NCBI GenBank assembly: GCA_000002435.2
Contig: CM018793.1
DNA: 64,000 nt
Reading direction: 5' to 3' (one strand)
Source: Giardia intestinalis
Taxonomy: Eukaryota
The notes under the pieces are model-generated. The model was not told the DNA's origin. It did no database searches and saw only the letters and a program-made list of their open reading frames with translations. Below are positions 12,105-34,972 of this stretch, one piece after another (the first letter of the stretch is position 1; the number at the start of each line of letters is the position of its first letter). The position numbers and the translations under genes are program-made.

Positions 12105-15100
12105 TCAGATCTTACCGTAAGTGGACCTTCTGCTCGGTGTAAGAGCGGTCCCAGCCCCGGAGCTGGGAGCCCTGTAGTTCAGTGCTTCTGCAGCCTTCGG
12201 TAAGTCAACTAGCATGAGCTTGTCCATCAACTCCTTCTGCCTTTCCAACTCGGTCATAACTATGGTTTTCTGTTGCGAGAGGGTGCTCATTGTTTGAGAT
12301 GCATCCAGCATGGATTTGCTGAGCCTTGTCGTCATGTTCTCTGCCTGATTGCGTAGATCGTTAATTTCTTGCTCATATCTAACATTCTCGGCTATTATAT
12401 CATCCATGGCAGACATCTGCTTGTTCAGAGCCAATATATCTTTCTTGAGAGCATCGTTTTCTGCCTTAAGTAAAAGAAATTCTTTGGTTGATGTGATTAG
12501 GCTACTGAATTTTGAATAGAGCATAGAGTGCTCCCTCTCTATACCCTCTGGATTATCTGCCGTCACTTCTATCTCCTGTATTAGTGCTCTCAGTGCATCA
12601 CGCTCCTCAATGAGAGAGGTTATGTCTACATAGGTCTTCTTAAGAGATGCCAGTTTCCGTTTCAGTATTGTTACCTCCTCGATCAGGCAAGGATCGTCCT
12701 TATGACCCAGAAACTGTGCCAATTGGTCTTCAAGATACTGTCGTTCGAGAACAGCAGCGGCTACTTCCGGGTTAGCTTGTCTTGCCTCCTCAAGTGAGCT
12801 GGAGAGTGAGGCTATCTGCCGGTCCAGAAGTGTCGGATTGGTGGAAAAATCCCGAAACTCTTGTAAGTCCTGAGACAGTTCGGCTCTGTGCTTAATTCTG
12901 GCGCTCAGGGACGTGTTGCTGTCACGAGCAGTTGCTAGCTGTACTTCCAGTGTCTCTATTTCATTTTGGAGGCGACTCTCTTGGCCTATTTGGCTCTTGA
13001 ATTCCTTTAATTCCTTTCTCAACGATAAAGCCTTATCGATCATGGTGCTAAGGTTATAGTTACTGGACTTAAACGCCTCCAATATGTTGTGCAAATTATC
13101 AATCCTGGTTTGTAGCGCCTTTGTGTTTCTCTCAGTTCCTTCTGCGCTCTCTGCTGCCATCTGGCAGTCCTCACAGAGGATGGTGAGGTCTTCTATGTCA
13201 AGAAGGCAGTTATGTATTTCTGGATAAGACTCTCGTAATTCAAGAAGGTTGTTTTGTATGACTTCGCGGCGAGTTTCTAGCTCATCTAGGGCTCCTGGCC
13301 TGAGATAATTGTCTATCTCGGCGTGCAAGTCCTTTATGTCCTGGTTCAATGCAGTTATCGCGTGATCATCCTGCTGCAGTTGTTGAAGCTGCAGTTGAAG
13401 ATGTGCCTTCTTGGCCTCTAATTGGTCAAGGACGACTTTTGGATCCTCGATGCGCTCATATTGCTTTAGTGACATTCCCAGCTCGTCGCAGTCCTTTATT
13501 AACTGGTGTAGCTGTGGATTGGCCTTCATTAGCGCATCGAAACGAAGCTGCAGATCACTCTTCTTTGTCTCGAGCAGCTCAGTATTGAGCCTCCCTTCAT
13601 GGATGTCACCAACCAACGTCTCTAGGTACTTATTTTCCTCTATGATGCTGAAAATGGAAGGATGCTTCTGTTTGAGAGCAGACAGTTGATCTACCAAGTT
13701 GGCATTTTCACGCACTATGGCAGAAGGCTGTTTAATGGCATTTGTTAAGCTATTAAGCTCTACCGTGGTTACTTCTATGCGGTTAATAAGCTCGGCTAGC
13801 TGGGGATTAGACTTCCGGAGCGTCTCCACTTCTGTTTCCAGACTCCTCTGACGGGCCTCGAGACGGCTCGGGTTATCTTTGTATGTCTTCATCTCTTCTA
13901 ATATCAGTTTGAGGTGCTCTACCTCGTTGACAAGGTGAGTGATGCCTTTTTCGCTCTTTATAGTGAAAAGCTCGGTCTGGAGTTGCGAGATATCATCAGA
14001 CAACGTCTTTTCATTGATCTCTCCGGATTTAAAGGCATTAATGAGACCTCTGAGCCGGTCTTGTTCGTCAAGTAGTAGCGAAACAGCAGAATTAGTATTT
14101 CTTAGAACGCGTGCCTCATTGCTTAACGATGTAATGACATTGCGTAACTCTGTTGTATCCAGAGAGTAGCGCTGAAGTTCAACAATCTCACGCTCTAGTT
14201 GGGCTTTCTCAGCTAAAAGTGCACCAACGGGTGACTTCTTTGCAGTATCATCTAGCGCTTTCAGTTGAGCCTTCAGTTGGGCAATTTGTTCCACGAGGCA
14301 TTCTGACTTGACAGAGTTATCTTTAGCTAATTGCGTGCTGGCTTCCAGCTTCTGCTGAAGAGAGTCAATCTCTGCAAGACGCTCAAACACATGGCTGTGC
14401 GCACTGTGCAATTCAGCAATCTCGTGCTCAATCTCTACTTTTTTCTGAGCAAGCTGGTCAGGACTATTAATATAGTTTTTGTATTGGCTCACTTCCTGCT
14501 GCATGCCCTCAACAGACTGCAGCAGCTGAAGAACATCCGGGGAGCCACGCTTCAAATCCTCCAAGGCATTGATTAGCTCACGATTTTGCTGCTCTAGCCG
14601 TGGCCTAGATTGAATAGCTATCTCTAGTGTTTGCATCTTCTCCTTCAGGCGTTCATTTTCAGCCAAAAGGGAATCTATGTCTGGGTTAAGTGTCTTCAGT
14701 TCTGCAATCTTATCTAGCAATACCTGCTTGCTTTCCTCCAAACGTCCTCTATCATCAATGCTCGCGTGGAACTCATTGATTTGCTGCAGCAAGCACAGCT
14801 TATCTTGTATGATGGATTCGATATCTGGAAAGTCGAGCTGCAATGCCGCCAGATTCTCTTGTAGCTTGTAATTATCTTCTTGCAAAGCTTCAGGATCTAT
14901 ATTTCCTTCTTTAATATCCATTATTTGGGTGCGGAGTGCGTTGTTTTCGTCCAGGAGCCTCAGAGTATTTCCGTGGGCTTCTTTCAACGCTGCTAGATTT
15001 TCCTGCAGCTGGATATAGTCCGCCTCAATTGTGAGCTTATTGCGCACTGCTGTCTCTACTGCTGCTTGCTCTTCACGGATCTTCTCCAAACCGGTTATCA

Positions 15101-17063
15101 TAGATAGAATCTCCGCACTACTCTCCTTTATTGAAGCCAGCTCTTCTTGAGACTTAACTAGCTCCCCTAGAAGTGTAGAAGGAGACTCAGCGTATAGCTT
15201 AAGCGACTTGATCTCGTTCTGAATGATGCCACGCTTTTCTAGAAGCTCCACTACTCCCGGTGAGTTTGTGCGGAGATCGTTTAGCTCCTGTTCTAGATTA
15301 CAAATCTCTGTGGCAAGAGCGGTGCTGCTGGTTGCAAGTCCATTGAGCTCCATGATCTCGTCTTGCAGAGCTGCTCTCTGCTTAGTAAGTTTCTCCACCT
15401 CTGGGTTATTGCGTTTAAGCTCTTCTTTCAGCCCGCGCATAGCCTCCACTTCGTTGTAAATTGTCTTTATATTGGCCAATGAATCTCCGAAGTTCTTGAT
15501 ATCCTGAGCCAGCTTGTTCTTATCTGCCAAAAGCCCAACGATATCTGGGTTCCCTTCTACTAGCATTGTTAGCTCTCCTCTCAATACCTCTAGTTCTTGC
15601 TCCAAGCTTTGCTTGTTATTTATGTACTCCTTAAACTCTAAGATCTCGTCATGTGTTCGCTTATAGATGTCAACGAGAAGTTTCACATCCGGAGAGGATG
15701 TCTTCAGCATTCCTAGCGTCTCCTTTTCCTGATTAAGCTTGTCAGCAAATCCAGCATTGTTGTCGAGTGCCTGCTGATAGAGGTCCACAATAGATCTGCA
15801 CTCCACATGCTCTCTAACCAGGAGGGAAATCTCTGGGTTGTTCTTTTCAAGTTCTGTAAGCTTCTGCTTCAGGCTTGTACATTCAAAAAGAGCACTTTCT
15901 AGAGTGCTGGTAGAGATGCGTTGTATCATGGAGCGCAGGTCTTCTGCCTTCTTAAGGGTCTCTGCGACATCCGGGTGGTTGGCCGCCATTTCCTGGTATT
16001 GCTTGCGAAGCAACGCATTCTCATTTAACCCATTTGTGGGAAACTGCACCATCTGCCGCAACTCTTCGATGTTCGATAGTAGCTGCTTTCTCTCTGTATA
16101 CCCTTGCATGACTGCCGGGTTGCTTTCGAGTATGGAGTCTATGCTCTGCTGGAGCATGCTTATATTATCAGTTAAACTAACAGGATTAATAATATAATTG
16201 TCCAACAGGCTTTTCTCTGCTTTGAGTTCCATGATTTTGTCAATATACACCGATGCAGTTTGATGTTTCGCGCGCTTAAGCTCAATGGTCGCTTGAAGTG
16301 CAGAGATCTGGTGCGATAGTTGGCTCAGGTCTTCCCCTGTATCCTCGGATGGCGCTGGACCATTACGAACAGGATGCTCAATTAAGGAATATAGATTAAG
16401 CTCGTGTTCTGCGTCTAAATAATCCTGTACCAAGGCCAGTGAATCCGCACTCATCGCTTTTCGAGTCTCCTCAATCTGCTTCCTCAGCAGCTCTGCCTCT
16501 GGGAGCATGACATGGCTTCCACTTGAAGCTGCCTGGATAGCTCGTGTAAGTACTTCAAGCTCCTTTTCAAGCTCTAATTTTTCAGATGTACATTTTTGAA
16601 TGGTCGGGTTTGTGCCCAAATCTGCCACCCGTGTCCGTAGCTCTTCGACTGTGCGGGAAAGAGAGCTCAACTCGGCAAGCTGATCCTGCAATTTAGTGCA
16701 TTCTTCTTTGAGAGCTTCCCTACTTCCTGATTGTTGTTCAATGGCTTCAATACTGGCAAGAAGGTCCTGTCGTGTGACAGATAACGTGGCACGCCCAGAG
16801 AGATCTTGGCAGGACGCAAGAATTGCACCATAAAGAGACTCCACCCGGCCATCGAGTTGCTGACGATACGTCTCCGAGAGCCTCTGTACCTGGAGCTGAA
16901 GCTCAGCACCAAGATTCTTCACGACTTCCTCCGGAAAAAGCCCTGCACCGCCCAAAAGCGCCAAGACATATGTGCTAAAGATATCCATTGTGCCGCTCAC
17001 AGCACCGTTCACTTCCTCGACCAGGGCACTCAGCTGCTCCAGTGGCACGGGATTCAAGGACAT
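12105..17063 (-). CDS. giant coiled-coil repeat protein (about 1,650 aa), probably cytoskeletal
   Basis: The ORF track starts at a TTG (17084); the first ATG (MSLNPVPLEQ...) is at 17063. The protein is almost entirely heptad-rich alpha-helical sequence. It is organised as 20 or more degenerate units of 30-40 residues, each punctuated by an N/S-P-(D/E)-h-x-x-L-L motif: NPEISLLV, SPDVKLLV, NPDIVGLL, NPEVEKLT, SPGVVELL, NPDIDSLL, SPDVLQLL, NPQLAELI, NPQLHQLI, YPEIHNCL, NPEVAAAV and others. Confidence 0.6.
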   Translation of the reverse strand: MSLNPVPLEQLSALVEEVNGAVSGTMDIFSTYVLALLGGAGLFPEEVVKNLGAELQLQVQRLSETYRQQLDGRVESLYGAILASCQDLSGRATLSVTRQDLLASIEAIEQQSGSREALKEECTKLQDQLAELSSLSRTVEELRTRVADLGTNPTIQKCTSEKLELEKELEVLTRAIQAASSGSHVMLPEAELLRKQIEETRKAMSADSLALVQDYLDAEHELNLYSLIEHPVRNGPAPSEDTGEDLSQLSHQISALQATIELKRAKHQTASVYIDKIMELKAEKSLLDNYIINPVSLTDNISMLQQSIDSILESNPAVMQGYTERKQLLSNIEELRQMVQFPTNGLNENALLRKQYQEMAANHPDVAETLKKAEDLRSMIQRISTSTLESALFECTSLKQKLTELEKNNPEISLLVREHVECRSIVDLYQQALDNNAGFADKLNQEKETLGMLKTSSPDVKLLVDIYKRTHDEILEFKEYINNKQSLEQELEVLRGELTMLVEGNPDIVGLLADKNKLAQDIKNFGDSLANIKTIYNEVEAMRGLKEELKRNNPEVEKLTKQRAALQDEIMELNGLATSSTALATEICNLEQELNDLRTNSPGVVELLEKRGIIQNEIKSLKLYAESPSTLLGELVKSQEELASIKESSAEILSMITGLEKIREEQAAVETAVRNKLTIEADYIQLQENLAALKEAHGNTLRLLDENNALRTQIMDIKEGNIDPEALQEDNYKLQENLAALQLDFPDIESIIQDKLCLLQQINEFHASIDDRGRLEESKQVLLDKIAELKTLNPDIDSLLAENERLKEKMQTLEIAIQSRPRLEQQNRELINALEDLKRGSPDVLQLLQSVEGMQQEVSQYKNYINSPDQLAQKKVEIEHEIAELHSAHSHVFERLAEIDSLQQKLEASTQLAKDNSVKSECLVEQIAQLKAQLKALDDTAKKSPVGALLAEKAQLEREIVELQRYSLDTTELRNVITSLSNEARVLRNTNSAVSLLLDEQDRLRGLINAFKSGEINEKTLSDDISQLQTELFTIKSEKGITHLVNEVEHLKLILEEMKTYKDNPSRLEARQRSLETEVETLRKSNPQLAELINRIEVTTVELNSLTNAIKQPSAIVRENANLVDQLSALKQKHPSIFSIIEENKYLETLVGDIHEGRLNTELLETKKSDLQLRFDALMKANPQLHQLIKDCDELGMSLKQYERIEDPKVVLDQLEAKKAHLQLQLQQLQQDDHAITALNQDIKDLHAEIDNYLRPGALDELETRREVIQNNLLELRESYPEIHNCLLDIEDLTILCEDCQMAAESAEGTERNTKALQTRIDNLHNILEAFKSSNYNLSTMIDKALSLRKELKEFKSQIGQESRLQNEIETLEVQLATARDSNTSLSARIKHRAELSQDLQEFRDFSTNPTLLDRQIASLSSSLEEARQANPEVAAAVLERQYLEDQLAQFLGHKDDPCLIEEVTILKRKLASLKKTYVDITSLIEERDALRALIQEIEVTADNPEGIEREHSMLYSKFSSLITSTKEFLLLKAENDALKKDILALNKQMSAMDDIIAENVRYEQEINDLRNQAENMTTRLSKSMLDASQTMSTLSQQKTIVMTELERQKELMDKLMLVDLPKAAEALNYRAPSSGAGTALTPSRRSTYGKI

Positions 17064-17157
17064 TGCCTGTATAGTATTAGTCAAAAATTATTACAAGTAG
17101 TTGCAAAAATTATGGCAAATGCTAAATTCCGAATTTTGAGACACCTCTAAATTAAAA
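17064..17157. promoter_or_regulatory. 94-bp bidirectional promoter region between the two head-to-head coiled-coil genes; AT-rich initiators on both strands
   Basis: '...tcaaaaattattacaagtagttgcaaaaattatggcaaatgctaaattccgaattttgagacacctctaaattaaaa' lies between ATG 17063 (minus strand) and ATG 17158 (plus strand). Confidence 0.5.
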
Positions 17158-19731
17158 ATGTCCGAGGCTATGGTTTTCAGCAAGATCGACGAGTACACGC
17201 TCTTTATGAGCCGGTCTCTCCAGAAATCGCTCAAAACATTTGCTGAGCAGGTCATGGCCCTAATTTATCAGTATAAAGATACGCTTGTCGAGGATAGGCT
17301 TGCTCTCACCAACACCCTCGACGAGGCGGTTCAGATTCTTGTCGACAGTGGCAAGGAGGAGGCGGATAAGCTTGGATTTAATATATACTCTGCGGTGAGT
17401 AGGTATATCAGCGAGATCTGGGCCTCTCAGTCTGGTCAGACAACGGCGGCCCCGCCAGCGACGGATATCGACGGGCTCCACAGGCAGCTTGTTGCTCTCA
17501 AGAATAGCCTTGGCCAAAATGCTGAGCTCTATGAGCAGAGGTGCCAACTTCAGGCGGAGTTGCGCGAACTTCAGGAATTTTCGGAGAACCCCGCGGCAGC
17601 AGTCGAGGAAATTATGCAGCTGAAGGCCCAGATAGATGAGCTCAAGTACGGGGCCTCGAACCACAACGCCCTTGTCCAGGAGAAGAGGGATCTTGAGCGC
17701 CATCTTGCAGACCTGCGCCTCAGTAGACAAGACACTAACTCACGCCTCCCCCAGGAGATCGACAGACTTCGCGCTGAGATCGAGGACGAGAAGCGCAATC
17801 TGCCGCATATGGACGATCTGCAAAGGCAGCGCGACGAGCTCCAGAGGCAGCTAGACACAATCAGGCGCCGGGGCAACACGTCGGGTGTCATGGCCGAGAT
17901 TGAGAACATACAGAGGCAGATAGACGATGCCAACTCCTCTGCGTCGAGCGAGCATGAGCTTCGAATGCTCCGTGCCGAAGTTGAGACTCTCCGTGCCCAG
18001 AAGTCCATCGTCACCCGTCTTGAGGCGGAGAATGCGGATCTGCGCCGAGAGCTACAGGACATTCGTGGCCGTGCTCAGGAAATGAGCGCTAGCCAGCGCT
18101 ACAGCGCCAATCAGGCGCAGGAGCTGCAGGAGAAGGCGATGCAGGCAGAGGAGCTTCTGCAGCAGAAGATTGAGCTTAGGCGCCAGCTTCATGAGGCTCT
18201 AGAGCGAGCAGATGCAGGTGAGGCTGCTCTTCGTGACAAGAGGCGACTTGAAGATGAGATAAAGGGCCTTCAGTTGCGTCTTACCGAAAACGACTTTACG
18301 AAGGAGCGCTCTATCCTCCGGAACGAGATCCAGGCTAAGACTACCGAGATAGACACACTTATCAGTGACCGTCGCGCTCTGGAGACCAAGCTCCTCAATA
18401 AAGAGGCAGAAGTGGATCAGCTTCTTTATGAAAAGCAACTTCTCAAGACAGAGCTGAACTCCTATCGCGGAACAAACGAGGATATAGACAAGCTTACCTT
18501 TGAGAAACGCCAGCTTGTTGAGGAGCTAAACGACCTGCGTGAGAAGACTATCAAATACGACCAATTGGCTCGTGAGAAGGCGGCGCTCGAGACTGAACTC
18601 AAGGAAAACTCGTACAACTTTGACCAGTTGCTTGAACAAAAGCAACAGATGCGTAGCGATCTCAATGCCCTTCGCGAAAAGGCAGCCGACTACGAGCGCG
18701 TCGATCGCGAGCTTCGCCTCAAGGACAAGGAGCTCGAGGAGAAGAATGCTGAGATCGAGAGGCTTCTTGAGGACCGCCGCGTCATGCGTACCGAGCTCCT
18801 CCACTCTAAGGAGTCTGCGACCGATGTTGACAGTTTGATACAAGAGAAGAGGCTGCGTGACCGAGAGCTTGCCCACCTTCGTGACCGCATGAGCGAGTAT
18901 GAGCGTGTGGTAGAAGAGAGGATCCAAAAGGAGAAAGAAAATAACCTTCTTAAGCAGCGTATCACGGAATTGGAGCAGCAGCAGCGCACCGCGACAGTCC
19001 GCGAGACCGAGATGAGTGCCCTCCGTGAGAAGGCTAACGAGTTAGATGGCTACAACCGTGAGCGCCAGGCAAGAGAGCATGAGATCAACATGTTGCGTGA
19101 CAAGGCCTTGGAGTCCGACAAGCTTCGCCAGGATAACAGGGTGATGGCGATGGAATTGACAGAGCTTCGCGAGAAGGTGCAACTTCTCGAGAAACTCCAA
19201 TACGAGAAGAGAGCACGAGACGTAGAGATGCTCGAGTTGCGCCACAAAGCCATGGACGTTGACACTCTTGTTGAGGAGAAGCAACGCCTTGAAATGCGTC
19301 TTGCAGAGCTCAAGATCAAGGTCAATAATTATGATCAGCTGGCAGACGACAAGGCTCGTCTGCAGGAGCAACTGAAAGAAATGTCAGACAAGCTGATAGA
19401 GTTCGAGATGATCATGGATGACAACCGAAGGCTTAAGCTTCAGGTTAAGGAGCTCGACCTTAAGACTGCAAACATGGAGAAGCTTTATGAGGAGTACAAG
19501 AAGCTCGAAGACCAGCTGAAGGCAACGAAGGCGATGACCTCTACAGGCATGGGTGTGTCGGCTGCCTCTCCGGCATTTTACAAGACGAAGAGTATGCGCC
19601 TTACACAACAAAACAACCAGATGAAAAACACAACAGACAACCTCCTAACGCGCGACATTCCCAAGTTGATCGACAAGCTTATTGAGCGCCCTGCGGGGAC
19701 TACAACCATGGGCCGAAGTGGTAAGTTCTGA
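17158..19731 (+). CDS. coiled-coil repeat protein (857 aa)
   Basis: ATG at 17158 preceded by 'ctctaaattaaaaATG'. The central region consists of degenerate 29-residue repeats of the form L-x-x-LR(E/D)KAx-x-(Y/D)-(E/D)-x-x-x-x-EK-x-x-LExEL: LNDLREKTIKYDQLAREKAALETEL, LNALREKAADYERVDRELRLKDKEL, MSALREKANELDGYNRERQAREHEI, LTELREKVQLLEKLQYEKRARDVEM. The antisense ORFs are repeat artefacts. Confidence 0.6.
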   Translation: MSEAMVFSKIDEYTLFMSRSLQKSLKTFAEQVMALIYQYKDTLVEDRLALTNTLDEAVQILVDSGKEEADKLGFNIYSAVSRYISEIWASQSGQTTAAPPATDIDGLHRQLVALKNSLGQNAELYEQRCQLQAELRELQEFSENPAAAVEEIMQLKAQIDELKYGASNHNALVQEKRDLERHLADLRLSRQDTNSRLPQEIDRLRAEIEDEKRNLPHMDDLQRQRDELQRQLDTIRRRGNTSGVMAEIENIQRQIDDANSSASSEHELRMLRAEVETLRAQKSIVTRLEAENADLRRELQDIRGRAQEMSASQRYSANQAQELQEKAMQAEELLQQKIELRRQLHEALERADAGEAALRDKRRLEDEIKGLQLRLTENDFTKERSILRNEIQAKTTEIDTLISDRRALETKLLNKEAEVDQLLYEKQLLKTELNSYRGTNEDIDKLTFEKRQLVEELNDLREKTIKYDQLAREKAALETELKENSYNFDQLLEQKQQMRSDLNALREKAADYERVDRELRLKDKELEEKNAEIERLLEDRRVMRTELLHSKESATDVDSLIQEKRLRDRELAHLRDRMSEYERVVEERIQKEKENNLLKQRITELEQQQRTATVRETEMSALREKANELDGYNRERQAREHEINMLRDKALESDKLRQDNRVMAMELTELREKVQLLEKLQYEKRARDVEMLELRHKAMDVDTLVEEKQRLEMRLAELKIKVNNYDQLADDKARLQEQLKEMSDKLIEFEMIMDDNRRLKLQVKELDLKTANMEKLYEEYKKLEDQLKATKAMTSTGMGVSAASPAFYKTKSMRLTQQNNQMKNTTDNLLTRDIPKLIDKLIERPAGTTTMGRSGKF

Positions 19732-25324: not shown

Positions 25325-25773
25325 TTTTTGCAATCCTCATAACAGGATGTGAGAGGAGGGGCGATGACTGTGTTGATCCAACCACGTACACTATTGGTCA
25401 ACGCTTCCCAGTGTCACCAGATCAACCGCCTGACAAAATTACAGCTGTATACCTTAATTCCCTTTTGAGAAAGAAAACATTAGGAAGTTAGCAACAACGA
25501 TTGCTCCCACAGAAAACCGCATCAGAGGTGCACGTGCGCTCAAAAAGGCCAAAAAAACAGAATCTTTCGGGCCTCTTTTGGGCCAATCGTTTTTACTGAC
25601 ATGAACAACTGTTAAACGTTGGTGAATAACTAGAAGGCCGCTAAAGATGCGACGATTCACTGGCACGCCACAGCTATAATTTTCTCTCACTATAGGTAAA
25701 AAGATATTGTAAAGCATTACATTAAACCCATCTCTGCGTTAAAAATTAATTATTGGCAGTACTCGGAGGCACC

Positions 25774-28587
25774 ATGTCCTGGTCATCACTGTTCGCGCTT
25801 TTAATTATTGCTATGCATGCTCATGATGAAGTCTGCGCACGCTGCCTTCATGATAAGTGCTTGCAGACGAGGCACGGCAGTGTATGCACTCATTGCGAGA
25901 CTGGATATGTCCCCTTGGAGGGCCGGTGCACCGCCACGGATGTGTCTTTCTGTCTTGTCGAATCAGAAGGGGGAGGTACATGTTCTCAGTGTGCCTATGG
26001 ATATAGAGGCCTCCTAAATGGTTGCTATCCTGTGCCACTGTTTGGAGTGCTTGACGGTAATGTATCTGCTGCCTCAGCCTTTTACATTTCCACTCACGTC
26101 CTTCTTAATGGCCAAATTCTCTTCACGGGGTGCTTTGCAAACAATGAACTGCCCATCAATGGTGTCTGCGCCGAGGACACTGACAATTGGTGTGCTCAAT
26201 CTGGAGAGACTGACTTTAGCTATGGAACGTCCTGTTTGCGGTGCACAGGGACTAATGTGTTCTATTTCAAGGGAGGATGCTATAACACCAAGACAGAGCC
26301 TGGCAGCCTGATTTGCAAGGCAGCTTTGGATGGAGTCTGTACTGCTTGCAATACCGATAGCGGCTACGTGTTCGAGAACCCTAGTACAGGTACGAAGACA
26401 GACCAGTGCATATCATGCGGCGATGGATATGGAGCCGATGGGTACAGTGGCGTTGAAAGTTGTAAAACATGTGTAGCGCCAAGTGGAAATAGCAAAATAG
26501 CTACGTGCTCTGCATGCCCAGATGGCTATAAATTTAACATTGCACACACTCGGTGCTTTAACTGTGCATTGCAGGGGTGCTTAAACTGTGATGGCTACGA
26601 CAGCTGTGAACACTGTGACACCGGCTTCTTTATGGCTGATCAATCGTACAGCAAAATCTGTGTTACGACGTGTCCATCAGGAACGTTCCCGTTTGTCAAC
26701 TCCACTGGATATAATAAGTGTTTCTCGTGCTCAAGTTCTGATGGAAGTGATTCTATAGCTGTAGAGCGCATACCAGGCTGTGAAACATGCGCAGTTGGTA
26801 GTGGCAACCTCCTGACATGCAGCGCATGCCTACAAGGGTATCAGCTCACGCCCACTGGATGCAAACAGGTTTGCGCTGACGTATTAGGGTGCGGTTTAGA
26901 TGCTTGTACTGTTGTCATAGGCTCTATGTCATACTGTTCAAAGTGCAAAAGTACAAATAACTATGCGCCCATAAACGGAGTATGTGAATATGTTTCCATG
27001 AATGATAAGTCTGGTTGCAGAAGAGAAGAAACTATCGCTGGGGTCTGTCCTCAATGCGGTGAGGGGTATTTCCTGCACATGAATGGTTGCTATAAAGCTG
27101 ATCAGGCTCCAGGAAATCTTGTGTGTAGCAGTGTTGGAACTGGTAGTCGATCTCTTAGAAACGCTGGCGCAGGGTTGTGCAGCGTCTGCGGGTCAGGGTA
27201 CCGTGCTAAGCATGGGCGGTGTATATCATGCAATAAACAGCACTGCCTTGAATACATCCCAAACACTTGTGTATGCACGCTATGCGAGGACAACGTTCTC
27301 CTAATTCAGGGGGAGTGCGTTTCGTTTCCCAGTTCCGGGTGCAAGGTGCCCTACTGTGCGCTGTGCGAAAAGAAGCTGGAAGTGTGCACGCGTTGTGAGG
27401 CCAGCTACTATATCACACCCCTGCACGGATGCACAAAGGACTGTGAAGACCTCATGGGATACCACAACAACGCTGATCTGGGCAAATGCGTTAGATGCAG
27501 AATTAGAAACTGTTACAAGTGCTACGATAGCGCTCGCTGCTCAGAATGCTCTACCGGATACGGGCTCACGGACAACCAGCAATGTGTACGGTGCCCCAAG
27601 AACTGCTTTGCATGCGCACATCACAATAAGTGCACGACATGCAAGTCTGGATACATCTTGAGTGACTCCGAAGTATGTGAGTCGGAGGATGAGTATAAGG
27701 TGGATTGCAAACATGCTGACGCTAAATACATCAAGTACGAGTTCGCACGTCATATAAAGGGATCTGTGCGCCAGAGATTAACGGCCTCCATGTGTTCAGA
27801 ATGTAATGCTGGTAAGGTGCCCATAAACGGTAAGTGCGTTTCAGTATCTGCAAAAGCTCCGAGTTGCACGCCTGGGACCGGGGAGAATGCTGGAAAGTGC
27901 ACCCGCTGCATAAGTAGTGGCAGCTCAAATAGTACCTTCCTTTATTCAGGGGGTTGCTACGATAGCAATACTAACGTGGGTAAGTCTCTCTGTGCAAGCG
28001 TTGGCGACAACGGATTGTGCGCCAGGTGCCCACGGGGCGGGTTTATGCTCGACACCAGTCGTAATGAGTGTGTACCGTGTCCCATGAACTGTATGAAATG
28101 TAACTCATCTGGCTGCCTAAGGTGTGATTCTGGCTGGCTGCTTATCGAAAGTGAGTGCGTGCCGTGCAAAAAAGGCTGCCTTGAATGCGGCAGTTCTTCA
28201 GACAAGTGCACAAGTTGCATCACTGGGTACTACGTAGCTGGAGCCACTACGTCATCTGGAAAGGAGGGGATATGCCGTAGGTGTGATGATACACAGGAAG
28301 TAGACGGTTGGAAAGGGATCCAAGGATGCACACTGTGTACACCACCAGTTTTTGCTGGAGAGGTGCTATGTTTGTCCAAAGAAGTGATAGAAGATGTAGT
28401 AACCCGCTCGCTCAGTTCTGGGGTCGTAGCAGGAATCTCTATTACAATAGTAGTTGTGGTTGCAGCGATCGTGGGGGTCCTAGTTTGGAAATATGTTTGC
28501 AAAAAGAAATCATCCAAACGCATCAAAATGGTTGACATGGACGTCAGCATCAATACCAGCCAGTACATGTCCACAAGCACTGTGTAA
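25774..28587 (+). CDS. high-cysteine membrane protein (HCMP; VSP-like ectodomain, non-VSP cytoplasmic tail)
   Basis: The ORF track starts at a TTG (25753); the ATG at 25774 gives the signal peptide MSWSSLFALLIIAMHA. About 38 CXXC motifs. GGCY motifs are present (FYFKGGCYNTK, LYSGGCYDSNT, NGCYKADQ). A single C-terminal TM segment (GVVAGISITIVVVVAAIVGVLVW) is followed by a 30-aa basic tail, KKKSSKRIKMVDMDVSINTSQYMSTSTV, rather than CRGKA. Confidence 0.75.
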   Translation: MSWSSLFALLIIAMHAHDEVCARCLHDKCLQTRHGSVCTHCETGYVPLEGRCTATDVSFCLVESEGGGTCSQCAYGYRGLLNGCYPVPLFGVLDGNVSAASAFYISTHVLLNGQILFTGCFANNELPINGVCAEDTDNWCAQSGETDFSYGTSCLRCTGTNVFYFKGGCYNTKTEPGSLICKAALDGVCTACNTDSGYVFENPSTGTKTDQCISCGDGYGADGYSGVESCKTCVAPSGNSKIATCSACPDGYKFNIAHTRCFNCALQGCLNCDGYDSCEHCDTGFFMADQSYSKICVTTCPSGTFPFVNSTGYNKCFSCSSSDGSDSIAVERIPGCETCAVGSGNLLTCSACLQGYQLTPTGCKQVCADVLGCGLDACTVVIGSMSYCSKCKSTNNYAPINGVCEYVSMNDKSGCRREETIAGVCPQCGEGYFLHMNGCYKADQAPGNLVCSSVGTGSRSLRNAGAGLCSVCGSGYRAKHGRCISCNKQHCLEYIPNTCVCTLCEDNVLLIQGECVSFPSSGCKVPYCALCEKKLEVCTRCEASYYITPLHGCTKDCEDLMGYHNNADLGKCVRCRIRNCYKCYDSARCSECSTGYGLTDNQQCVRCPKNCFACAHHNKCTTCKSGYILSDSEVCESEDEYKVDCKHADAKYIKYEFARHIKGSVRQRLTASMCSECNAGKVPINGKCVSVSAKAPSCTPGTGENAGKCTRCISSGSSNSTFLYSGGCYDSNTNVGKSLCASVGDNGLCARCPRGGFMLDTSRNECVPCPMNCMKCNSSGCLRCDSGWLLIESECVPCKKGCLECGSSSDKCTSCITGYYVAGATTSSGKEGICRRCDDTQEVDGWKGIQGCTLCTPPVFAGEVLCLSKEVIEDVVTRSLSSGVVAGISITIVVVVAAIVGVLVWKYVCKKKSSKRIKMVDMDVSINTSQYMSTSTV

Positions 28588-28792
28588 ATTACTGTAAGAT
28601 AATGTCGGCATCATGTCTTGATCCACGGGTGTTCGCCCTTAGTGTCCTGGACAATACAGTGAGCCTCCACGGAACAAATACAAAGTCCTTATGGTGTTCT
28701 CATAGTAGTAGAGTTGTCGAACATATTTGCTTAAAAGTTTTTACACTCCAATTTGCAAAAAAGTTTGTGTTTTAACTTTGTTTTAAATTTTA

Positions 28793-31700
28793 ATGACAAA
28801 CCCGCCTCCTCTCGCAGAGACGATCCTGCAATGCAGCAACCCGGAGCAGGAGATGTTCCGCTCTCTCAATGTGGACATGAGCGACCGCAATGACGAGATC
28901 ACCAACAAGCTTGTCCTCAGGGAGTACATAAATATGAAGCTCCAGACCCTTGGATACGAGCCAATTCCGTCGTTAGAGTCGCTTGTACTAACAACACCTG
29001 GTTCCACAAACTCACAGAGTGCTTCACAGGCAAATACGCCTGGCCCTGCCCACTGCATCCAACCCTACAGCAAGCCTTGCGCAGAGTCAGGTGTGACGTC
29101 CGCTCAACATGAAGTTGTGACGGTGTCGTCTATTGCGCGAGATCTGCTGAGGTCTCTCCGTATTGCAGACATTGCACTAGCGGATCACCCATCTCCTGTT
29201 GACATGCGTATCCAGGACTTCATTAACCAGGACCTGAAACCCTTCCCAGGCCTCTCTGCGGACGAGGTAGCTGCACTGAATCTTCCTCCGAAGGCGAACT
29301 GCTTCTCTATGGATCGCTGTGGAATCTCATTCGAGCTATCTACGCCTTTTGACTCGAACTACTACAAGGCAAGTGGCACAGAAGCAGTTCACCTCCCGCA
29401 GGGTCTCCTTGCCAACCCAGAGTCTGACAAACGCACCACAGTGGGAACATTTCATGTTGCAGAAGGTCATCTGCCGATTCCACAAGATAAACTGGCGGTC
29501 CCCACGCGAACCTTCATCCACTTGCTTTCACACGCCCTACATCCACCGAAGGAAACGATGGAGCTTCCATTCACGGGTACCCTCCCTGCTGAGAAACGCT
29601 GCCGCTGCTGGTGCTCTGCCTACCTGACCCCTGTGGTGCAGCCAGGCGTCAGTGCAAACTTTCCTCAGAAGCACATGGAAGTGCGCTTCTTTGTTCCAGG
29701 AGCCTACGTCAGCAATTTAGCATTCGTTGAGTATATTTTTGGGAACGCTGGGGATCCCAGCCTTCCCGAAAACGATCTCTGGCTCAAGCCTGACCGGAAC
29801 ATTGGGGTCACCAGCTGCATCATCATAGCGCCTCACCTGCGCAAGCTCCGAAAGAAGGACCTTGGCCTGCCTAACGTTGCGGATGCAACAGATCGCCAGA
29901 AGAGGGATGGAATGTGCTGGGCATCTGAGGATGAACTGTACAATGGTGGAAAGGCGTTTAAGATCTGTTACCGCTCCAAGGAGGGTGTGTCGATCACGCT
30001 TGTTGCAGACACCTACTACGGCTACTCTAAGAAAGAGATAAAGACGCAGATTTCATATGCTGCCAATGTCCGTGGAAATGCAGAGGAGGAACACAGCGGG
30101 GGCTGTCTCGCTTTCCCTGTTATGTCGTGGGGTCGCAACTTCCGTGCGGATGATAAGCGCATCGGGCTTGTTTCTACCGTGGACGAGCATTCGAATCCAC
30201 GCAGACTTGTTCGTGAAAACTCGTGTCTTTCAACTGGCCTCCCGACAACCTGTCATACGTTCAACGAAATGAGGAAGCTTTTGGCTCCATCTCCAGCGTC
30301 CCTATTCCTGACACTTACCTCTCAAAATTCATCGGGACACGATGGTTCTTCCAAGAAGAGTATTTCTGCGCACGTGAAGCCTGTTGCCACTTATAACAAG
30401 GCAAGGGGTGTTCTGATTGACACTCGCTACCCAGATGACATCGTTTATGTGCCTGAGACTATGTCTATCGATTTGGCCACACGGCACATCAGCTGGACTC
30501 ACCCTGAGTCGGGGGAGCAGATCACAGAAACCATCCTGGCCAATGTCGACTACATCCTCCCTAATGGATACCGTGTTCGCTTAATTCGTCACCCTATTTC
30601 CCATACCTGGATGATTAAGGGAACAAGCGCCGAAGCGATTTGCAATTTCCATAAGCCATTCACTGTCTCCGGGGGTGGAAAGTCAGAGATCAGCAAATCG
30701 GTCCTGGACGCAATAACTTCGGGGACCTTCTATGTAAAAAACTTCGACGATCTAAAGACACAGGTTGATACCGTGTTCAACTACGACTTTCCTAAGAGGT
30801 TCCGCGACGGAAATATCAAGGCAACATCACGCCACATCCTGTCCGAAGATCGTACGCTGGGGTCTGTGATCAAACTTCTAACGGTTGACTATGATATCTA
30901 CACCGATGAGTATAACGAATGGCTCGAAAAGCTTCATAAGGAGATGCCGGATGTCATTGGCTTTATCTTTATTCTAAAGGCTCTCTATCGCCCGTCCTGG
31001 GGTGACTACGACAGCTGGAAAACCAGATTCAGGGTTGATAAGATGAACGGGTCAACAAGTCACACTATCATTTACCAGGATGCACCCCTGGCCGTTAACT
31101 ATTTGAGAGTGGGGTCTGAGAGGGACGAGAAGGGAATGTGGAGGTGGCGAAATTATCGCCTACGCGCAGATTACTACCCCAGCCAGAAGATTCAAACAGA
31201 GGATGACATTACGGCGTCCACAGTTGTGCGCAGCAAGGACCTTTACGACATGGAGATGGACGCAAGCTCAGCGTTGATGGGGTCGCACTGTGGATTGCCT
31301 ACGCCCAATACAGAGGGCGATGCCTCCGAAAAGTCCTACAAATTCGTCAGCAATTGTGAGTACCGCTTTTTCCAGCGCCCGGATGACTGCGTACACCCAG
31401 GAGCAGATAAGCAGTGCGAGATGGACCTCTCTCGTTGCAAGGGGAGGACCTTCATCACAAACTTCCAAAAGATCACTAGAAGCGAGTGCAAGGCAATGGC
31501 AGCCGATGTAATGAGCCTCGAAAAGTACACACAGCCTGTTCAGCAGCTGATCCGCGACTTCGCAGCAGGCGCTTATCCACATGAGGAGTACTGTGTCGTC
31601 TCGTCTCTTCCACGCATTACAGGGACAAAACCGGACGGCACTCCCATTCGCAGTGCTAATGTCCGCTACCTCCAAGACAGGCCTGAGTGGTACGAGCCGT

Positions 31701-32785
31701 GCAAGCGCGAAAAGTACTCTAGCGAGATTTCCCTGCGACTGGCGCGAGGGATAAGTCTAGAGAAGCCTGTGCTCCTGCCTGTTTCGCTGGTCGTTCCGGG
31801 GCGTAGACTGAATCCTAAGGACGGAGATATCAGGCCTCTCGCGGTCTTCAATCCGATGCACTATCAAGAGCTCCCAGAGCTTTTCATGGATCTGATCCCG
31901 TGTATCACCGGGAAGTCTCCATCCACGACTGGAGCTGGCGTTGAGGGGGCGCTCACAAAGGGCCCGTTCAACAGTATTCTTCCGATAGTGGACCTCAACA
32001 ACTGCTTCCTTTCTCTTGTACTCACTGGAACGCCATGCTTTTCAACAGCTGCAGGCTACATCGGCCACAAGTTTAAGGTAGATCACGACATTTCTCTCAT
32101 CATCCCAGAGGTCCTGAGCAGGATGAGCGTTGAAGAGAGGACCCCGAAGTATCTCATCTCTCACAAGTTTATGGAGAAGATTGAGGATTTCGAACACAAT
32201 GGAAAGCATATCCCTGCATCAATCCTCGGTTACCGTATCACTTGGAGTTTTGTCAAGACGTTCTTTGCGAGAGTCTTTGATTCCGTTCATTCCCTCTTCA
32301 CAGAGGAGCATCTCAAGCCTGAACTCCAGGACATGGATGCGTTTGCAGATGGTGTCCTGAACATCCACGAATCGCAGCTGCGAATAATCGACAACTATTT
32401 TGCAGACGGCTCAGTTAACGAGGCAATCCCACCTCTTAAGTACCTCCTTCACATCTGCAAATACGGCGAGTATAAGGGCCTGAAGCTCCACTCCCCCGAG
32501 TTCAGAAAGATGTTTACTCGCGACTACGTGTTAGATAGCGACTGGTATCAGCGACGCCTTGTGGTTAAACAGAGCTTAGACCTGAAGCTTTTAGAGAAGA
32601 ATATCAAATACGTCTTTAACTTCTCCAAGAACGAAGCCATTGCAGAGGAAGCAAACCGTCGCGGCCTGTGTGTGGATAGGGTTCTTGCAGAATCCCTTGC
32701 ACTGAAGAGCTATATTGGCAGCAACAAGTATCTCAACGATCTGGTCGGCACAATTGGTGTGCAAGTGTGGGGTGACGAAGATTGA
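28793..32785 (+). CDS. large conserved hypothetical protein (1,330 aa); probably an enzyme, family not recognised
   Basis: Uninterrupted 4-kb ORF. ATG at 28793 with initiator 'ttttaaattttaATG'. Globular and non-repetitive composition, with no TM segment and no low-complexity stretch. AGTGAAT poly(A) signal 26 nt after the stop. Confidence 0.5.
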   Translation: MTNPPPLAETILQCSNPEQEMFRSLNVDMSDRNDEITNKLVLREYINMKLQTLGYEPIPSLESLVLTTPGSTNSQSASQANTPGPAHCIQPYSKPCAESGVTSAQHEVVTVSSIARDLLRSLRIADIALADHPSPVDMRIQDFINQDLKPFPGLSADEVAALNLPPKANCFSMDRCGISFELSTPFDSNYYKASGTEAVHLPQGLLANPESDKRTTVGTFHVAEGHLPIPQDKLAVPTRTFIHLLSHALHPPKETMELPFTGTLPAEKRCRCWCSAYLTPVVQPGVSANFPQKHMEVRFFVPGAYVSNLAFVEYIFGNAGDPSLPENDLWLKPDRNIGVTSCIIIAPHLRKLRKKDLGLPNVADATDRQKRDGMCWASEDELYNGGKAFKICYRSKEGVSITLVADTYYGYSKKEIKTQISYAANVRGNAEEEHSGGCLAFPVMSWGRNFRADDKRIGLVSTVDEHSNPRRLVRENSCLSTGLPTTCHTFNEMRKLLAPSPASLFLTLTSQNSSGHDGSSKKSISAHVKPVATYNKARGVLIDTRYPDDIVYVPETMSIDLATRHISWTHPESGEQITETILANVDYILPNGYRVRLIRHPISHTWMIKGTSAEAICNFHKPFTVSGGGKSEISKSVLDAITSGTFYVKNFDDLKTQVDTVFNYDFPKRFRDGNIKATSRHILSEDRTLGSVIKLLTVDYDIYTDEYNEWLEKLHKEMPDVIGFIFILKALYRPSWGDYDSWKTRFRVDKMNGSTSHTIIYQDAPLAVNYLRVGSERDEKGMWRWRNYRLRADYYPSQKIQTEDDITASTVVRSKDLYDMEMDASSALMGSHCGLPTPNTEGDASEKSYKFVSNCEYRFFQRPDDCVHPGADKQCEMDLSRCKGRTFITNFQKITRSECKAMAADVMSLEKYTQPVQQLIRDFAAGAYPHEEYCVVSSLPRITGTKPDGTPIRSANVRYLQDRPEWYEPCKREKYSSEISLRLARGISLEKPVLLPVSLVVPGRRLNPKDGDIRPLAVFNPMHYQELPELFMDLIPCITGKSPSTTGAGVEGALTKGPFNSILPIVDLNNCFLSLVLTGTPCFSTAAGYIGHKFKVDHDISLIIPEVLSRMSVEERTPKYLISHKFMEKIEDFEHNGKHIPASILGYRITWSFVKTFFARVFDSVHSLFTEEHLKPELQDMDAFADGVLNIHESQLRIIDNYFADGSVNEAIPPLKYLLHICKYGEYKGLKLHSPEFRKMFTRDYVLDSDWYQRRLVVKQSLDLKLLEKNIKYVFNFSKNEAIAEEANRRGLCVDRVLAESLALKSYIGSNKYLNDLVGTIGVQVWGDED

Positions 32786-32810
32786 GCAGGCTGAGTCCGA
32801 TAGGGCAGTG

Positions 32811-32817
32811 AGTGAAT
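32811..32817 (+). promoter_or_regulatory. AGTGAAT polyadenylation signal of the 1,330-aa gene
   Basis: 'cagtgAGTGAATttg' lies 26 nt downstream of the TGA at 32783-32785. Confidence 0.5.
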
Positions 32818-32857
32818 TTGCGTGTGCTGCATCTTTATGTGGAGCTTGGTTGCAGGG

Positions 32858-32864
32858 ATTTACT
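32858..32864 (-). promoter_or_regulatory. AGTAAAT polyadenylation signal of the convergent kinase gene
   Basis: Plus strand 'atttact' is AGTAAAT on the minus strand, 26-32 nt downstream of the kinase TGA (plus strand 32890-32892). Confidence 0.45.
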
Positions 32865-32889
32865 GCGGAGCACGACGGTGCGTTCTGAC

Positions 32890-34875
32890 TCAAGAAAGGC
32901 GTCTCTGCGTCAAAACGCCGCGAGGGATTGAGATTGAATGATGAACTGACTGTGCAGATGAGGTCCTGCCATGGCTATTGACGGGACTATTGCTTCGCAC
33001 GTGCTGACATGTACGGTTTATTTGACGAAGCTTTTCAATGCAGCGAGTAACAGAGTCTGCATACTTTAAGGATGCAAACCCCTTGGGGTTCCACTTAGCA
33101 GATTCATATTTCTCATTATAATCTTCCTGGAGTCTTGCCGGGGAAGGATACGAAAAGTGCCGTACGTTTTCCTTGATTATAGAAAAGGCAGAATGCGATC
33201 GTTGTGCAGCACGCTCATCCGGCATATTACGCAAGTCTGTTAAGTTCTGCATTTCTCGGAGCTCTTTAATGGTGCAAAATTCGTCAAACTTCGACAAGGA
33301 TGCTTCCATCTGTGCGGCCAGAACATCCTCATCTCCATCTATAGGAGTGCTGATTCTGGCAACATCAGTAGTGGCCAGACGCTGTGCTCTAGCAGGCTCC
33401 TCACTGCGGGGAGAGCTTGGAGTCGCTGAGAAAGCACGTCTCTTGTCAACAGCTGAATCGGTAGGAAGTGCACATCTTCTATTATAGCGCTCTGGAGAGA
33501 TGTTACTGTAAAGAATGTAGCCCCGCGACGGAGAAATAGGCTCATCAACCAATCTGCTAGATTGCACTTTATTGGCGTGCCTATCCATTGACCTATCGTT
33601 TGAGGCTTCTGGCTCCATGATCCTGATACTGTTTCGGGCAGAAGAATGGGAAGAAGAGTTAATCCGTGGCTTAGCGTCATTGCTATCATCCCCAACTGTT
33701 CTAACAACACTTTCAGTAAGAGGAAGGCTCCGCAAGATGTTAAAGAGGTACTCCAGCGAACATTCATCAATACTCCCAGACCATGATAGCTTGCAAAGAA
33801 GCTGCTTCAACTCGTCACAAGTTTCAACCCTAAAAAGAAGCTTTCTAGCTATATCGCTGGGCACGTACAGTTCCCTTTTCAAATCATCCGACAAAATATC
33901 TTTGAAACAGGGATTACGGAGGAGTTGAGATGCTCTAGGTCGAGCGGCTGGGTTTATGGTCAGCATGGCCTCCACCAGCTTAACTAACTCAGAGGATCTC
34001 CCCGGCAAGCATATGCCGAAACGATTTTCTCCCGAAAAGTATGCCTTTTGGACATCGGTATTGGGGAAAAGGCGCTCCGTAGTGGCCATCTCATAAACAA
34101 CGCATCCAAGAGCCCAGATATCATTCTCCACCCCAGCTACAGAATAGTACGCTTCAGGAGCCCTGTATCCTGGCGCTCCAGCAAAGCCCGACTCCTCTGT
34201 GTTAGTAACGTAGTCAAGGGTAATGTTCTTCAACTGCCTCAGCTCCTCTTCATCAAACTGTGCCGCCATAGTAAAGTCTGCTAGCTTGATGTTATTATCG
34301 TAGTCCAACAAGATGTTATCTGGCTTGATGTCACGGTGGGGTATGGGGAAGTGAATACGTGCACTGTCCACGGTACCCTGATCATCTTCTGTGTTGCCAG
34401 ATTTGTCGTCTATGCAGCTTGGCCGTCTACTGGTCGATCTGGAAAGTAATTCAGGGATTTTGTACCATGCTTCTGTCGATGGATCGTGCAGATAATGCAG
34501 AGCACTGAGAAGTTGGTACGTGTACTTCCATATGTCTGCCTCAGGAATGGGTTCCCTGCGTCTGCGGTGGCTCTGAATAAGCTTCTTGAGAGAGTATTTC
34601 ATGAGAGGCATAATAATATTGATTGTTTGCAGCCTGCTGTCAATGACGACTTCCCGTACGGGGAGGATGTATGGGTGATGGAATCCCTGCATTAGGTAGC
34701 CCTCCCTAGACATCCCATAGTACTCCTTGCTGTCTCGGTCAATATCGCCATAATAGATAATTTTGACCACCAACTCCTCTCCAGTCGCCCTATCCATGCA
34801 ATGGTGTATCTTTGCCTGTGTTCCCATGCCAATCATTGCCGCTACGTCATACTTTAAGGCGATTTTGCTCTGCAT
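32890..34875 (-). CDS. atypical Ser/Thr protein kinase (DFG replaced by DFT; large insert before the catalytic loop)
   Basis: The ORF track starts at a TTG (34890); the ATG is at 34875 (MQSKIALKYDVAAMIGMGTQAKI...VVKI). Catalytic loop 'HRDIKPDNILLD'. 'KLADFTMA' stands in place of DFG. 'APGYRAPE' is present. A hydrophilic insert of about 45 aa lies between 'LHYLH' and HRD. The C-terminal 300 aa are S-rich and low-complexity. Confidence 0.6.
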   Translation of the reverse strand: MQSKIALKYDVAAMIGMGTQAKIHHCMDRATGEELVVKIIYYGDIDRDSKEYYGMSREGYLMQGFHHPYILPVREVVIDSRLQTINIIMPLMKYSLKKLIQSHRRRREPIPEADIWKYTYQLLSALHYLHDPSTEAWYKIPELLSRSTSRRPSCIDDKSGNTEDDQGTVDSARIHFPIPHRDIKPDNILLDYDNNIKLADFTMAAQFDEEELRQLKNITLDYVTNTEESGFAGAPGYRAPEAYYSVAGVENDIWALGCVVYEMATTERLFPNTDVQKAYFSGENRFGICLPGRSSELVKLVEAMLTINPAARPRASQLLRNPCFKDILSDDLKRELYVPSDIARKLLFRVETCDELKQLLCKLSWSGSIDECSLEYLFNILRSLPLTESVVRTVGDDSNDAKPRINSSSHSSARNSIRIMEPEASNDRSMDRHANKVQSSRLVDEPISPSRGYILYSNISPERYNRRCALPTDSAVDKRRAFSATPSSPRSEEPARAQRLATTDVARISTPIDGDEDVLAAQMEASLSKFDEFCTIKELREMQNLTDLRNMPDERAAQRSHSAFSIIKENVRHFSYPSPARLQEDYNEKYESAKWNPKGFASLKYADSVTRCIEKLRQINRTCQHVRSNSPVNSHGRTSSAQSVHHSISIPRGVLTQRRLS

Positions 34876-34972
34876 TGGCTTCTGTTGCAACTTTTTTACC
34901 CTTTGATTTACTGACTTTCGTTGTAAGCGCCCAAAAGACTTGTCGCCCAGGCTGATACTTCCCTTTGACGAA

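Follow-up and report, generated by a model that had tools for sequence, protein, structure and literature searches.

The gene at positions 28793–32785 (plus strand) of a 64,000-nucleotide stretch of Giardia intestinalis DNA (assembly GCA_000002435.2, contig CM018793.1), referred to here as the window, encodes a 1330-residue protein that almost certainly belongs to the pyrophosphate (PPi)-type phosphoenolpyruvate carboxykinase (PPi-PEPCK) family. The protein is identical, residue for residue, to GL50803_00101278 of Giardia intestinalis WB (assemblage A; XP_001707402.1, KAE8305753.1, UniProt A8BEQ2), and 1330-residue orthologs are present in assemblages A2, B, and E. An earlier note, made from the letters of the window, had described the product as a large globular protein of no recognizable family, possibly an enzyme, and had named a PPi-PEPCK-like protein as one hypothesis and a diplomonad-specific protein as the alternative. 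The PPi-PEPCK hypothesis proved correct, and with it the suggestion of an enzyme is borne out by family membership. The note had also ranked the gene first in the window as a candidate for something undescribed. It is in fact already known, having been recognized as a PEPCK by automatic annotation and by one 2024 paper (PMC11527388). NCBI labels the protein “hypothetical protein”, and its UniRef name is [quoted passage not shown]. The coding sequence assignment draws on the open reading frame (ORF), the identity to GL50803_00101278, phmmer and Foldseek searches, and the low ratio of nonsynonymous to synonymous substitution rates (dN/dS, omega).

Family Assignment from Sequence Searches

Searched against PDB sequences with phmmer, the protein matches the PPi-PEPCKs of Propionibacterium freudenreichii (8e1u_A, E = 3.3e-254) and Actinomyces israelii (6k31_A, E = 2.4e-251), and both matches align as two blocks covering query residues 119–451 and approximately 541–1324. 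A profile built from 34 homologs spans residues 5–1128 and 14–1150 of the two PPi-PEPCK chains. At E ≤ 10 this profile retrieved nothing from the PDB besides 8e1u and 6k31, and no ATP- or GTP-dependent PEPCK was among its matches. These confident matches by phmmer and profile, together with the Foldseek result given below, overturn the description of the protein as one of no recognizable family.

The family is large. A word-index search of 5.8 billion proteins found 4537 homologs at E ≤ 1e-5 among the candidates scored. When 1.84 billion 50%-identity representatives were searched exhaustively with HMMER, 1757 of them matched at E ≤ 1e-3, including 303 at E ≤ 1e-30. Pfam-A and NCBIfam scans of the 1330-residue protein returned zero families at E ≤ 1, including the ATP- and GTP-PEPCK families. 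PF26300 (PEPCK_PPi_lobe_2) is present in the precomputed annotation of the protein’s own cluster, of its homologs, and of the assemblage B ortholog. The empty Pfam-A scan therefore says nothing about the protein, and the lack of Pfam-A and NCBIfam matches apparently reflects a PPi-PEPCK model missing from the scanned copies.

Predicted Fold and Comparison with Known Enzymes

The AlphaFold2 model, computed from a 121-sequence alignment, covers residues 131–1330 as a monomer. Its mean predicted local distance difference test score (pLDDT) is 86.7 and its predicted template modeling score 0.88, and 1068 of its 1200 residues have a pLDDT of at least 70. By this model most of the chain is globular, as described earlier, except for five low-complexity insertions, which are treated below. 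A Foldseek search of the model against the PDB, one of the checks that had been proposed, places only 8E1U and 6K31 chains among its top ten matches, all of them PPi-PEPCKs, with template modeling (TM) scores of 0.83–0.86 (query) and 0.89–0.91 (target) and a root-mean-square deviation of 2.9–3.8 Å. The TM scores (query/target) are 0.85/0.91 for 8e1u and 0.83/0.90 for 6k31.

The P. freudenreichii enzyme (8E1U; McLeod and Holyoak 2023, via PMC12547629) is homologous over its full length, with approximately 39% identity in the structural alignment and the same fold at a deviation of approximately 3 Å. It shares with the Giardia protein the blocks YxGYxKKE, EEEHSGG, HKPxTVSGGGKSEISKS, QTEDDITAS, FQRPDD, GRRxNP, and TGKSPSTTGAGxEGALTKGPFN. 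It differs in that the Giardia protein is approximately 200 residues longer by insertions and carries alanine at D310. The 8E1U structure contains bound malate, a regulator. The A. israelii enzyme (6K31; Chiba et al. 2019, via PMC10441589) has the same motifs, and the Giardia protein is longer than it by the same insertions. The family is reported to be homodimeric (Chiba 2019, also via PMC10441589).

Beyond these matches, Foldseek ranks 11–50 are occupied throughout by ATP- or GTP-PEPCKs, with E values of 6.1e-5 to 1.6e-2 and query TM scores of 0.13–0.30; at E ≤ 0.001 these and the PPi-PEPCKs are the only kinds of match. The ATP/GTP enzymes, such as those of Escherichia coli (1AQ2), rat cytosol (3DT4), and Giardia itself (GL50803_10623), share the phosphoenolpyruvate (PEP)/oxaloacetate chemistry and are the only other fold neighbors (Foldseek E from 6e-5). 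However, they have no detectable sequence similarity to the Giardia protein, are about half its size, and use a nucleotide instead of a PPi/inorganic phosphate (Pi) partner. On the predicted model, this link indicates a distant structural kinship without membership, visible at the fold level only. It agrees with PMC10441589, in which PPi-PEPCKs are said to share their three-dimensional architecture with classical PEPCKs although the sequences are unrelated.

Conserved Residues and Predicted Active Site

Conservation was assessed in two samples. Across 28 close bacterial homologs, 243 columns are invariant, and 216 of these are kept in Giardia. The broad sample consists of full-length 50%-identity representatives down to 30% identity together with other metamonads (26 sequences, 21 of them non-diplomonad). 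All 41 columns that are invariant in the 21 non-diplomonad sequences are kept in Giardia. They include R214, T216, F220, Y408, G410, K413, K414, H434, G436, S626, G629, K630, E632, D804, D805, E856, R862, D864, E876, N890, N956, R958, S1042, E1051, T1055, K1056, F1059, and H1098.

Several of these residues fall into motifs, all encoded on the plus strand. The Y408-x-G-Y-S-K413-K414 motif (30014–30034), in which Y408, G410, K413, and K414 are invariant in 26 of 26 sequences and in both PDB enzymes, may correspond to the active-site Tyr/Lys-Lys motif of GTP-PEPCK, given the common fold and the order of the motifs. The E432-E433-H434 motif (30086–30094) is part of the EEEHSGG block common to 8e1u and 6k31; H434 is invariant in 26/26 and is a putative metal ligand by analogy with classical PEPCK. 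The P-loop-like segment T-V-S626-G-G-G-K630-S631-E632 (30662–30688), with S626, G629, K630, and E632 invariant in 26/26, is predicted to bind phosphate or PPi through S626-GGG-K630-S631. In the model the SGGGKSE segment runs from a strand (model residues 487–490) through a loop into a helix (model residues 500–504), a Walker-A-like topology. The Asp pair D804-D805 (31202–31207), invariant in 26/26 and set in the QTEDDITAS block of both PDB enzymes, provides further predicted metal ligands. Taken in order, the Tyr/Lys-Lys, His, P-loop, and Asp-Asp motifs appear to mirror the active site of classical PEPCK.

The longest near-invariant block of the family is K1041-SPSTTGAGVEGALTKGPF-N1060 (31913–31972), in which S1042, E1051, T1055, K1056, and F1059 are invariant in 26/26. 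Inside this block, model residues 920–924 (protein 1050–1054) have a pLDDT below 50. Its sequence invariance and locally low pLDDT suggest that residues 1041–1060 are probably a mobile active-site loop acting as a lid.

Six residues that are invariant in the 28 bacterial homologs are changed in all diplomonads: R180F, Y199V, D310A, W336N, N407T, and N1006L. Both crystallized enzymes carry the bacterial residue at all six positions. In the broad sample five of the six vary freely, and D310 alone is near-constant (Asp in 19 of the 21 non-diplomonads). It sits in the conserved SNLDFVExIFGNAGDP helix. A degenerate diplomonad pseudoenzyme was considered and rejected, as five of the six changed positions vary elsewhere in the family and only the change of D310 to Ala or Gly is unusual.

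Distribution and Origin

The closest relatives of the protein are found in Giardia muris (GMRT_10109, 70% identity), in P0003 (53%), and in Spironucleus salmonicida (SS50377_28350, 44%). P0003 is a 1341-residue PPi-PEPCK encoded on a Logan SRR31929897 contig (L083:10001–14026). Other metamonad orthologs occur in the Carpediemonas-like Aduncisulcus paluster (GKT24910.1, approximately 48%), which is already named a PPi-type PEPCK at NCBI, and in Barthelona sp. PCE (KAL0237589.1). A relative is also present in “Eukaryota sp. GEM-RC1”. In bacteria there are at least 588 confirmed genome loci in many phyla. The best 80 genome loci all have 41–45% identity, none is archaeal, and they include Bacteroidota, Ignavibacteriota, Verrucomicrobiota, Planctomycetota, Gemmatimonadota, Proteobacteria, Spirochaetota, and Actinomycetota. 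The diplomonad-specific alternative of the earlier note does not stand against thousands of bacterial homologs and several from other metamonads.

Neighbor-joining trees recover a diplomonad clade at 100% bootstrap support; the diplomonads with Aduncisulcus receive 57%, and all sampled metamonads together receive 64%. No supported bacterial sister or donor stands out in these trees or among the best 80 loci. Lateral transfer from an identifiable bacterial donor was rejected on this account and because the metamonads tend to cluster together. On the simplest reading, at the moderate support of the neighbor-joining trees, the gene would have been acquired long ago and inherited vertically within metamonads since then.

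P0003 branches between G. muris and Spironucleus, with 96–100% neighbor-joining support for the surrounding clades. Its contig has 61–66% GC over the first 18 kb, versus approximately 49% GC in the Giardia window. Synteny of the contig with the window was considered and rejected, as the downstream kinases are only 21% identical. The source of P0003 looks like an unsequenced diplomonad-related lineage.

The S. salmonicida homolog, at 1215 residues, also keeps all 41 family-invariant residues. In PMC7762791 the Hexamitinae ancestor is scored as having lost PEP–oxaloacetate interconversion via PEPCK. The apparent loss is probably due to the PPi-type enzyme not having been annotated.

Selection and Lineage-Specific Insertions

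Between assemblages A and B the gene aligns without gaps, with 82.7% nucleotide and 94.5% amino-acid identity. By the Nei-Gojobori method, dN/dS for the whole gene is 0.02; the conserved core has 0.011 and the insertions 0.149. These ratios are approximate, as dS (approximately 1.6) approaches saturation. The overall ratio of 0.02 shows that the gene is a genuine coding gene, and the core ratio points to strong purifying selection on the conserved core.

The Giardia protein is approximately 180–200 residues longer than the bacterial members, which have approximately 1150 residues. The surplus lies in insertions at residues 3–18, 61–105, 456–482, 500–531, and 826–844, plus a few of four residues, and comprises approximately 140 residues of lineage-specific low-complexity loops. 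Ser, Thr, Pro, Gly, Asn, and Gln make up 53% of the insertions versus 31% of the core. The insertions coincide with segments of pLDDT below 50 and evolve approximately 13 times faster than the core. Their positions are common to diplomonads, whereas their lengths vary, with proteins of 1215 to 1341 residues. The insertions look like ordinary eukaryotic loop expansions, that is, lineage-specific low-complexity surface loops.

Four of them were characterized individually, all on the plus strand. Insertion 1 (residues 61–105; 28973–29107) is an N-terminal loop rich in Ser, Thr, Pro, Gly, and Gln that corresponds to a gap in at least 90% of the 28 bacterial sequences, with an omega of 0.118 versus 0.011 in the core. 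Insertion 2 (residues 456–482; 30158–30238) is found in all diplomonads and has an omega of 0.158; the pLDDT is below 50 at model residues 332–355 (protein 462–485). The Ser-rich insertion 3 (residues 500–531; 30290–30385) is found in G. intestinalis and P0003 and is absent from G. muris and Spironucleus. Its omega is 0.20, with a pLDDT below 50 at model residues 379–395 (protein 509–525). Insertion 4 (residues 826–844; 31268–31324), a Giardia-specific loop, is the fastest-evolving segment (dN 0.25) and overlaps model residues 693–711 (protein 823–841), where the pLDDT is below 50.

Proposed Function and Alternative Explanations

It is very probable that the protein is an active cytosolic PPi-PEPCK that works in Giardia as follows. 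GL50803_00101278 would catalyze PEP + Pi + CO2 <-> oxaloacetate + PPi (PEP carboxytransphosphorylase, EC 4.1.1.38), a reaction that is described, together with its metal requirement, in PMC8100219 and PMC10441589. A divalent metal held by ligands of the K414/H434/D805 type would stabilize the enolpyruvate intermediate, S626-GGG-K630-S631 and conserved arginines would hold Pi or PPi, and the invariant 1041–1060 loop would shut over the active site. Carboxylation is the likely direction in Giardia, and would start a branch that leads from PEP to oxaloacetate, malate, and pyruvate. Malate dehydrogenase 3331 and malic enzyme 14285, both placed in a Giardia metabolic map together with GTP-PEPCK 10623 (PMC5450421), would take oxaloacetate to malate and pyruvate. 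The phosphoryl energy of PEP would be kept as PPi, which could be spent by PPi-dependent phosphofructokinase and by pyruvate phosphate dikinase; the latter enzyme is mentioned for Giardia in PMC7762791 and PMC12965863. The PPi enzyme would operate beside the separately annotated GTP-PEPCK GL50803_10623 (EC 4.1.1.32), the only PEPCK listed in the Giardia maps of PMC5450421 and PMC8700996.

The PPi-PEPCKs of Entamoeba histolytica (PPi-PEPCK1–3) offer a physiological model for this mechanism, as they belong to the same family in an anaerobic gut protist with PPi-dependent glycolysis. According to PMC8100219 (citing Chiba et al.), three PPi-PEPCK genes are present in Entamoeba, which lacks an ATP/GTP PEPCK, and the founding identification of PPi-PEPCK genes was that of Chiba et al. 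2015. Giardia differs in having one PPi-PEPCK and one GTP-PEPCK, and the relation to Entamoeba is drawn here from the literature. The Giardia protein is made, as published proteomics and tagging document. In PMC11527388 (2024), GL50803_101278 is labeled PEPCK in the energy-metabolism scheme of a supplementary figure, with homology inferred by HHpred, and is among the proteome changes of an Mlf knockout. In PMC4954726 (2016), Gl101278 was found through AP2 co-immunoprecipitation, and the HA-tagged protein was expressed and imaged.

Several considerations weigh against the proposed function. An enzyme assay of the Giardia PPi-type protein was not found in the searchable literature. The mapping of catalytic roles draws on motif order and general knowledge of classical PEPCKs, and the flux direction, the phosphoryl-donor specificity, and the division of labor with GTP-PEPCK are likewise inferred. 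D310 (window 29720–29722) is replaced by Ala throughout Giardia and in P0003, and by Gly in Spironucleus. Tagged Gl101278 was localized to the cell cortex and peripheral-vacuole zone (PMC4954726), which is not obvious for a soluble enzyme of a glycolytic branch.

One alternative retains the enzyme and reverses its main direction: a chiefly decarboxylating, gluconeogenic PPi-PEPCK (oxaloacetate + PPi -> PEP + CO2 + Pi) that would, for example, direct aspartate or malate carbon to the synthesis of cyst-wall GalNAc while GTP-PEPCK carries the carboxylating flux. The reaction is reversible according to PMC10441589, GTP-PEPCK 10623 is the enzyme placed in the fermentative maps of Giardia, and the computed results fix no direction. 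However, the characterized PPi-PEPCK favors carboxylation, unlike the ATP/GTP enzymes, as reported in PMC12547629 (citing McLeod and Holyoak), and Spironucleus keeps the PPi enzyme although PEPCK has been scored as lost, which suggests that the PPi type alone can carry this node. This direction of flux is accordingly regarded as unlikely. Far less room is left for a PPi-PEPCK-derived protein whose role is mainly non-catalytic or moonlighting, for instance in static clathrin/AP2 assemblies at peripheral vacuoles, with the insertions as interaction surfaces. Such a role would account for the localization of HA-Gl101278 to the cortex and bare zone of the cell and for its presence in AP2-subunit co-immunoprecipitation datasets (PMC4954726), and it could draw on the lineage-specific loops and the replacement of D310. 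Set against it are the retention of all 41 invariant residues, the low omega of the core, and the faster evolution of the insertions, contrary to expectation for segments that serve the main function. Moreover, the same co-immunoprecipitation and cortex list contains an ordinary enzyme, Gl21942 (NADP-glutamate dehydrogenase, PMC5450421), so the link to AP2 may stem from abundance and need not imply a dedicated role. A dedicated clathrin-associated role was judged weak for this reason, as at least one ordinary metabolic enzyme is on the list.

The earlier note’s other alternative, a diplomonad-specific protein of unknown function that belongs to no family, would fit the empty Pfam-A and NCBIfam scans at E ≤ 1 and the NCBI name. 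It is ruled out by the 4537 homologs at E ≤ 1e-5, the 1757 representatives, the bacterial loci (at least 588), the two crystal-structure matches at E ~1e-250, and the fold, and next to no probability attaches to it.

Gene Structure, Transcript Signals, and Neighboring Genes

The gene is a single uninterrupted ORF with an ATG start, no internal stops, and a TGA stop at 32783–32785, and position 28793 is the earliest usable start past the upstream in-frame stop. An open frame of 1330 codons in DNA of approximately 50% GC is far beyond chance. TRF found no tandem repeats inside the ORF, in keeping with its earlier description as non-repetitive; the uninterrupted frame, the initiator, and the AGTGAAT poly(A) signal that had been reported for it were likewise confirmed.

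Directly upstream of the ATG is an AT-rich initiator-like region (28768–28790, plus strand), which TRF reports as 2.1 copies of an 11-bp unit (period 11) with the consensus TGTTTTAAATT. The AT-rich TTTTAAATTTTA, contained in this repeat, abuts the ATG at 28793 and is identical, base for base, in assemblage B, whereas the rest of the 200 nucleotides upstream of 28793 has just 34.5% identity to assemblage B in an ungapped comparison. Within the 28768–28790 repeat, only the proximal 12 nucleotides or so, TTTAAATTTTA, are kept in assemblage B. General knowledge of Giardia promoters suggests that the 28768–28790 region may be a promoter element.

The poly(A) signal AGTGAAT (32811–32817, plus strand) fits the Giardia consensus AGTRAAY and lies 26 nucleotides past the PEPCK stop. 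AGTGAAT also occurs downstream of the assemblage B ortholog, amid sequence that is otherwise unalignable. The consensus is scarce in the window, with 21 sites on both strands versus a mean of 33 expected from 100 dinucleotide-preserving shuffles, 99 of which give at least 21 sites. Such depletion is consistent with stray poly(A) signals being selected against where genes are densely packed.

The PEPCK gene is separated by a 104-bp gap (32786–32889) from a convergent kinase gene (32890–34890, minus strand). The gap contains one poly(A)-like motif per gene, AGTGAAT at 32811–32817 (plus) and AGTAAAT at 32858–32864 (minus), each 26 nucleotides past the stop of its own gene. The upstream neighbor (25753–28587, plus strand) encodes 944 residues and belongs to the variant-specific surface protein family of Giardia (PF03302, E = 1.9e-56). 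Its start is TTG in the ORF listing, and translation probably begins at an ATG further along. Both neighbors are kept in assemblage B, with a variant-specific surface protein family gene upstream and an opposite-strand protein kinase downstream.

Other large ORFs in the window are located at 12105–17084 (minus strand), 4585–7245 (plus), and 17158–19731 (plus), encoding 1659, 886, and 857 residues, and at 54244–63780 (minus), encoding 3178 residues. A Pfam-A scan of the 1659-, 886-, and 857-residue products found no match at E ≤ 1e-4. The Pfam-A copy also missed PPi-PEPCK, so an empty Pfam result is weak evidence of novelty for window ORFs. These four ORFs are better candidates for unknowns than the gene at 28793–32785.

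Significance

The immediate consequences are modest. They concern an outdated “hypothetical protein” label and the omission of PPi-PEPCK from diplomonad metabolic reconstructions. The gene can leave the list of unknowns, and it represents no new kind of system.

A broader proposal, put forward tentatively and with more doubt than confidence, is that PPi-PEPCK rather than GTP-PEPCK is the main PEP–oxaloacetate enzyme in Giardia and other metamonads and a major source of PPi for glycolysis, inherited from an early metamonad ancestor. If this were true, reconstructions that score PEP–oxaloacetate interconversion as lost in Hexamitinae would need correcting. The enzyme would also be a parasite-specific target, and its loop insertions, together with the D310A/G change confined to diplomonads, might modify its regulation or explain its cortical localization. 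PMC8100219 places PPi-PEPCK only in unicellular eukaryotes and bacteria, and the Entamoeba counterpart is among the PPi enzymes inhibited by bisphosphonates (PMC7943716). Correct annotation would complete the PPi economy of Giardia, in which PPi-PEPCK would join PPi-dependent phosphofructokinase and pyruvate phosphate dikinase, and it would flag a possible drug target.

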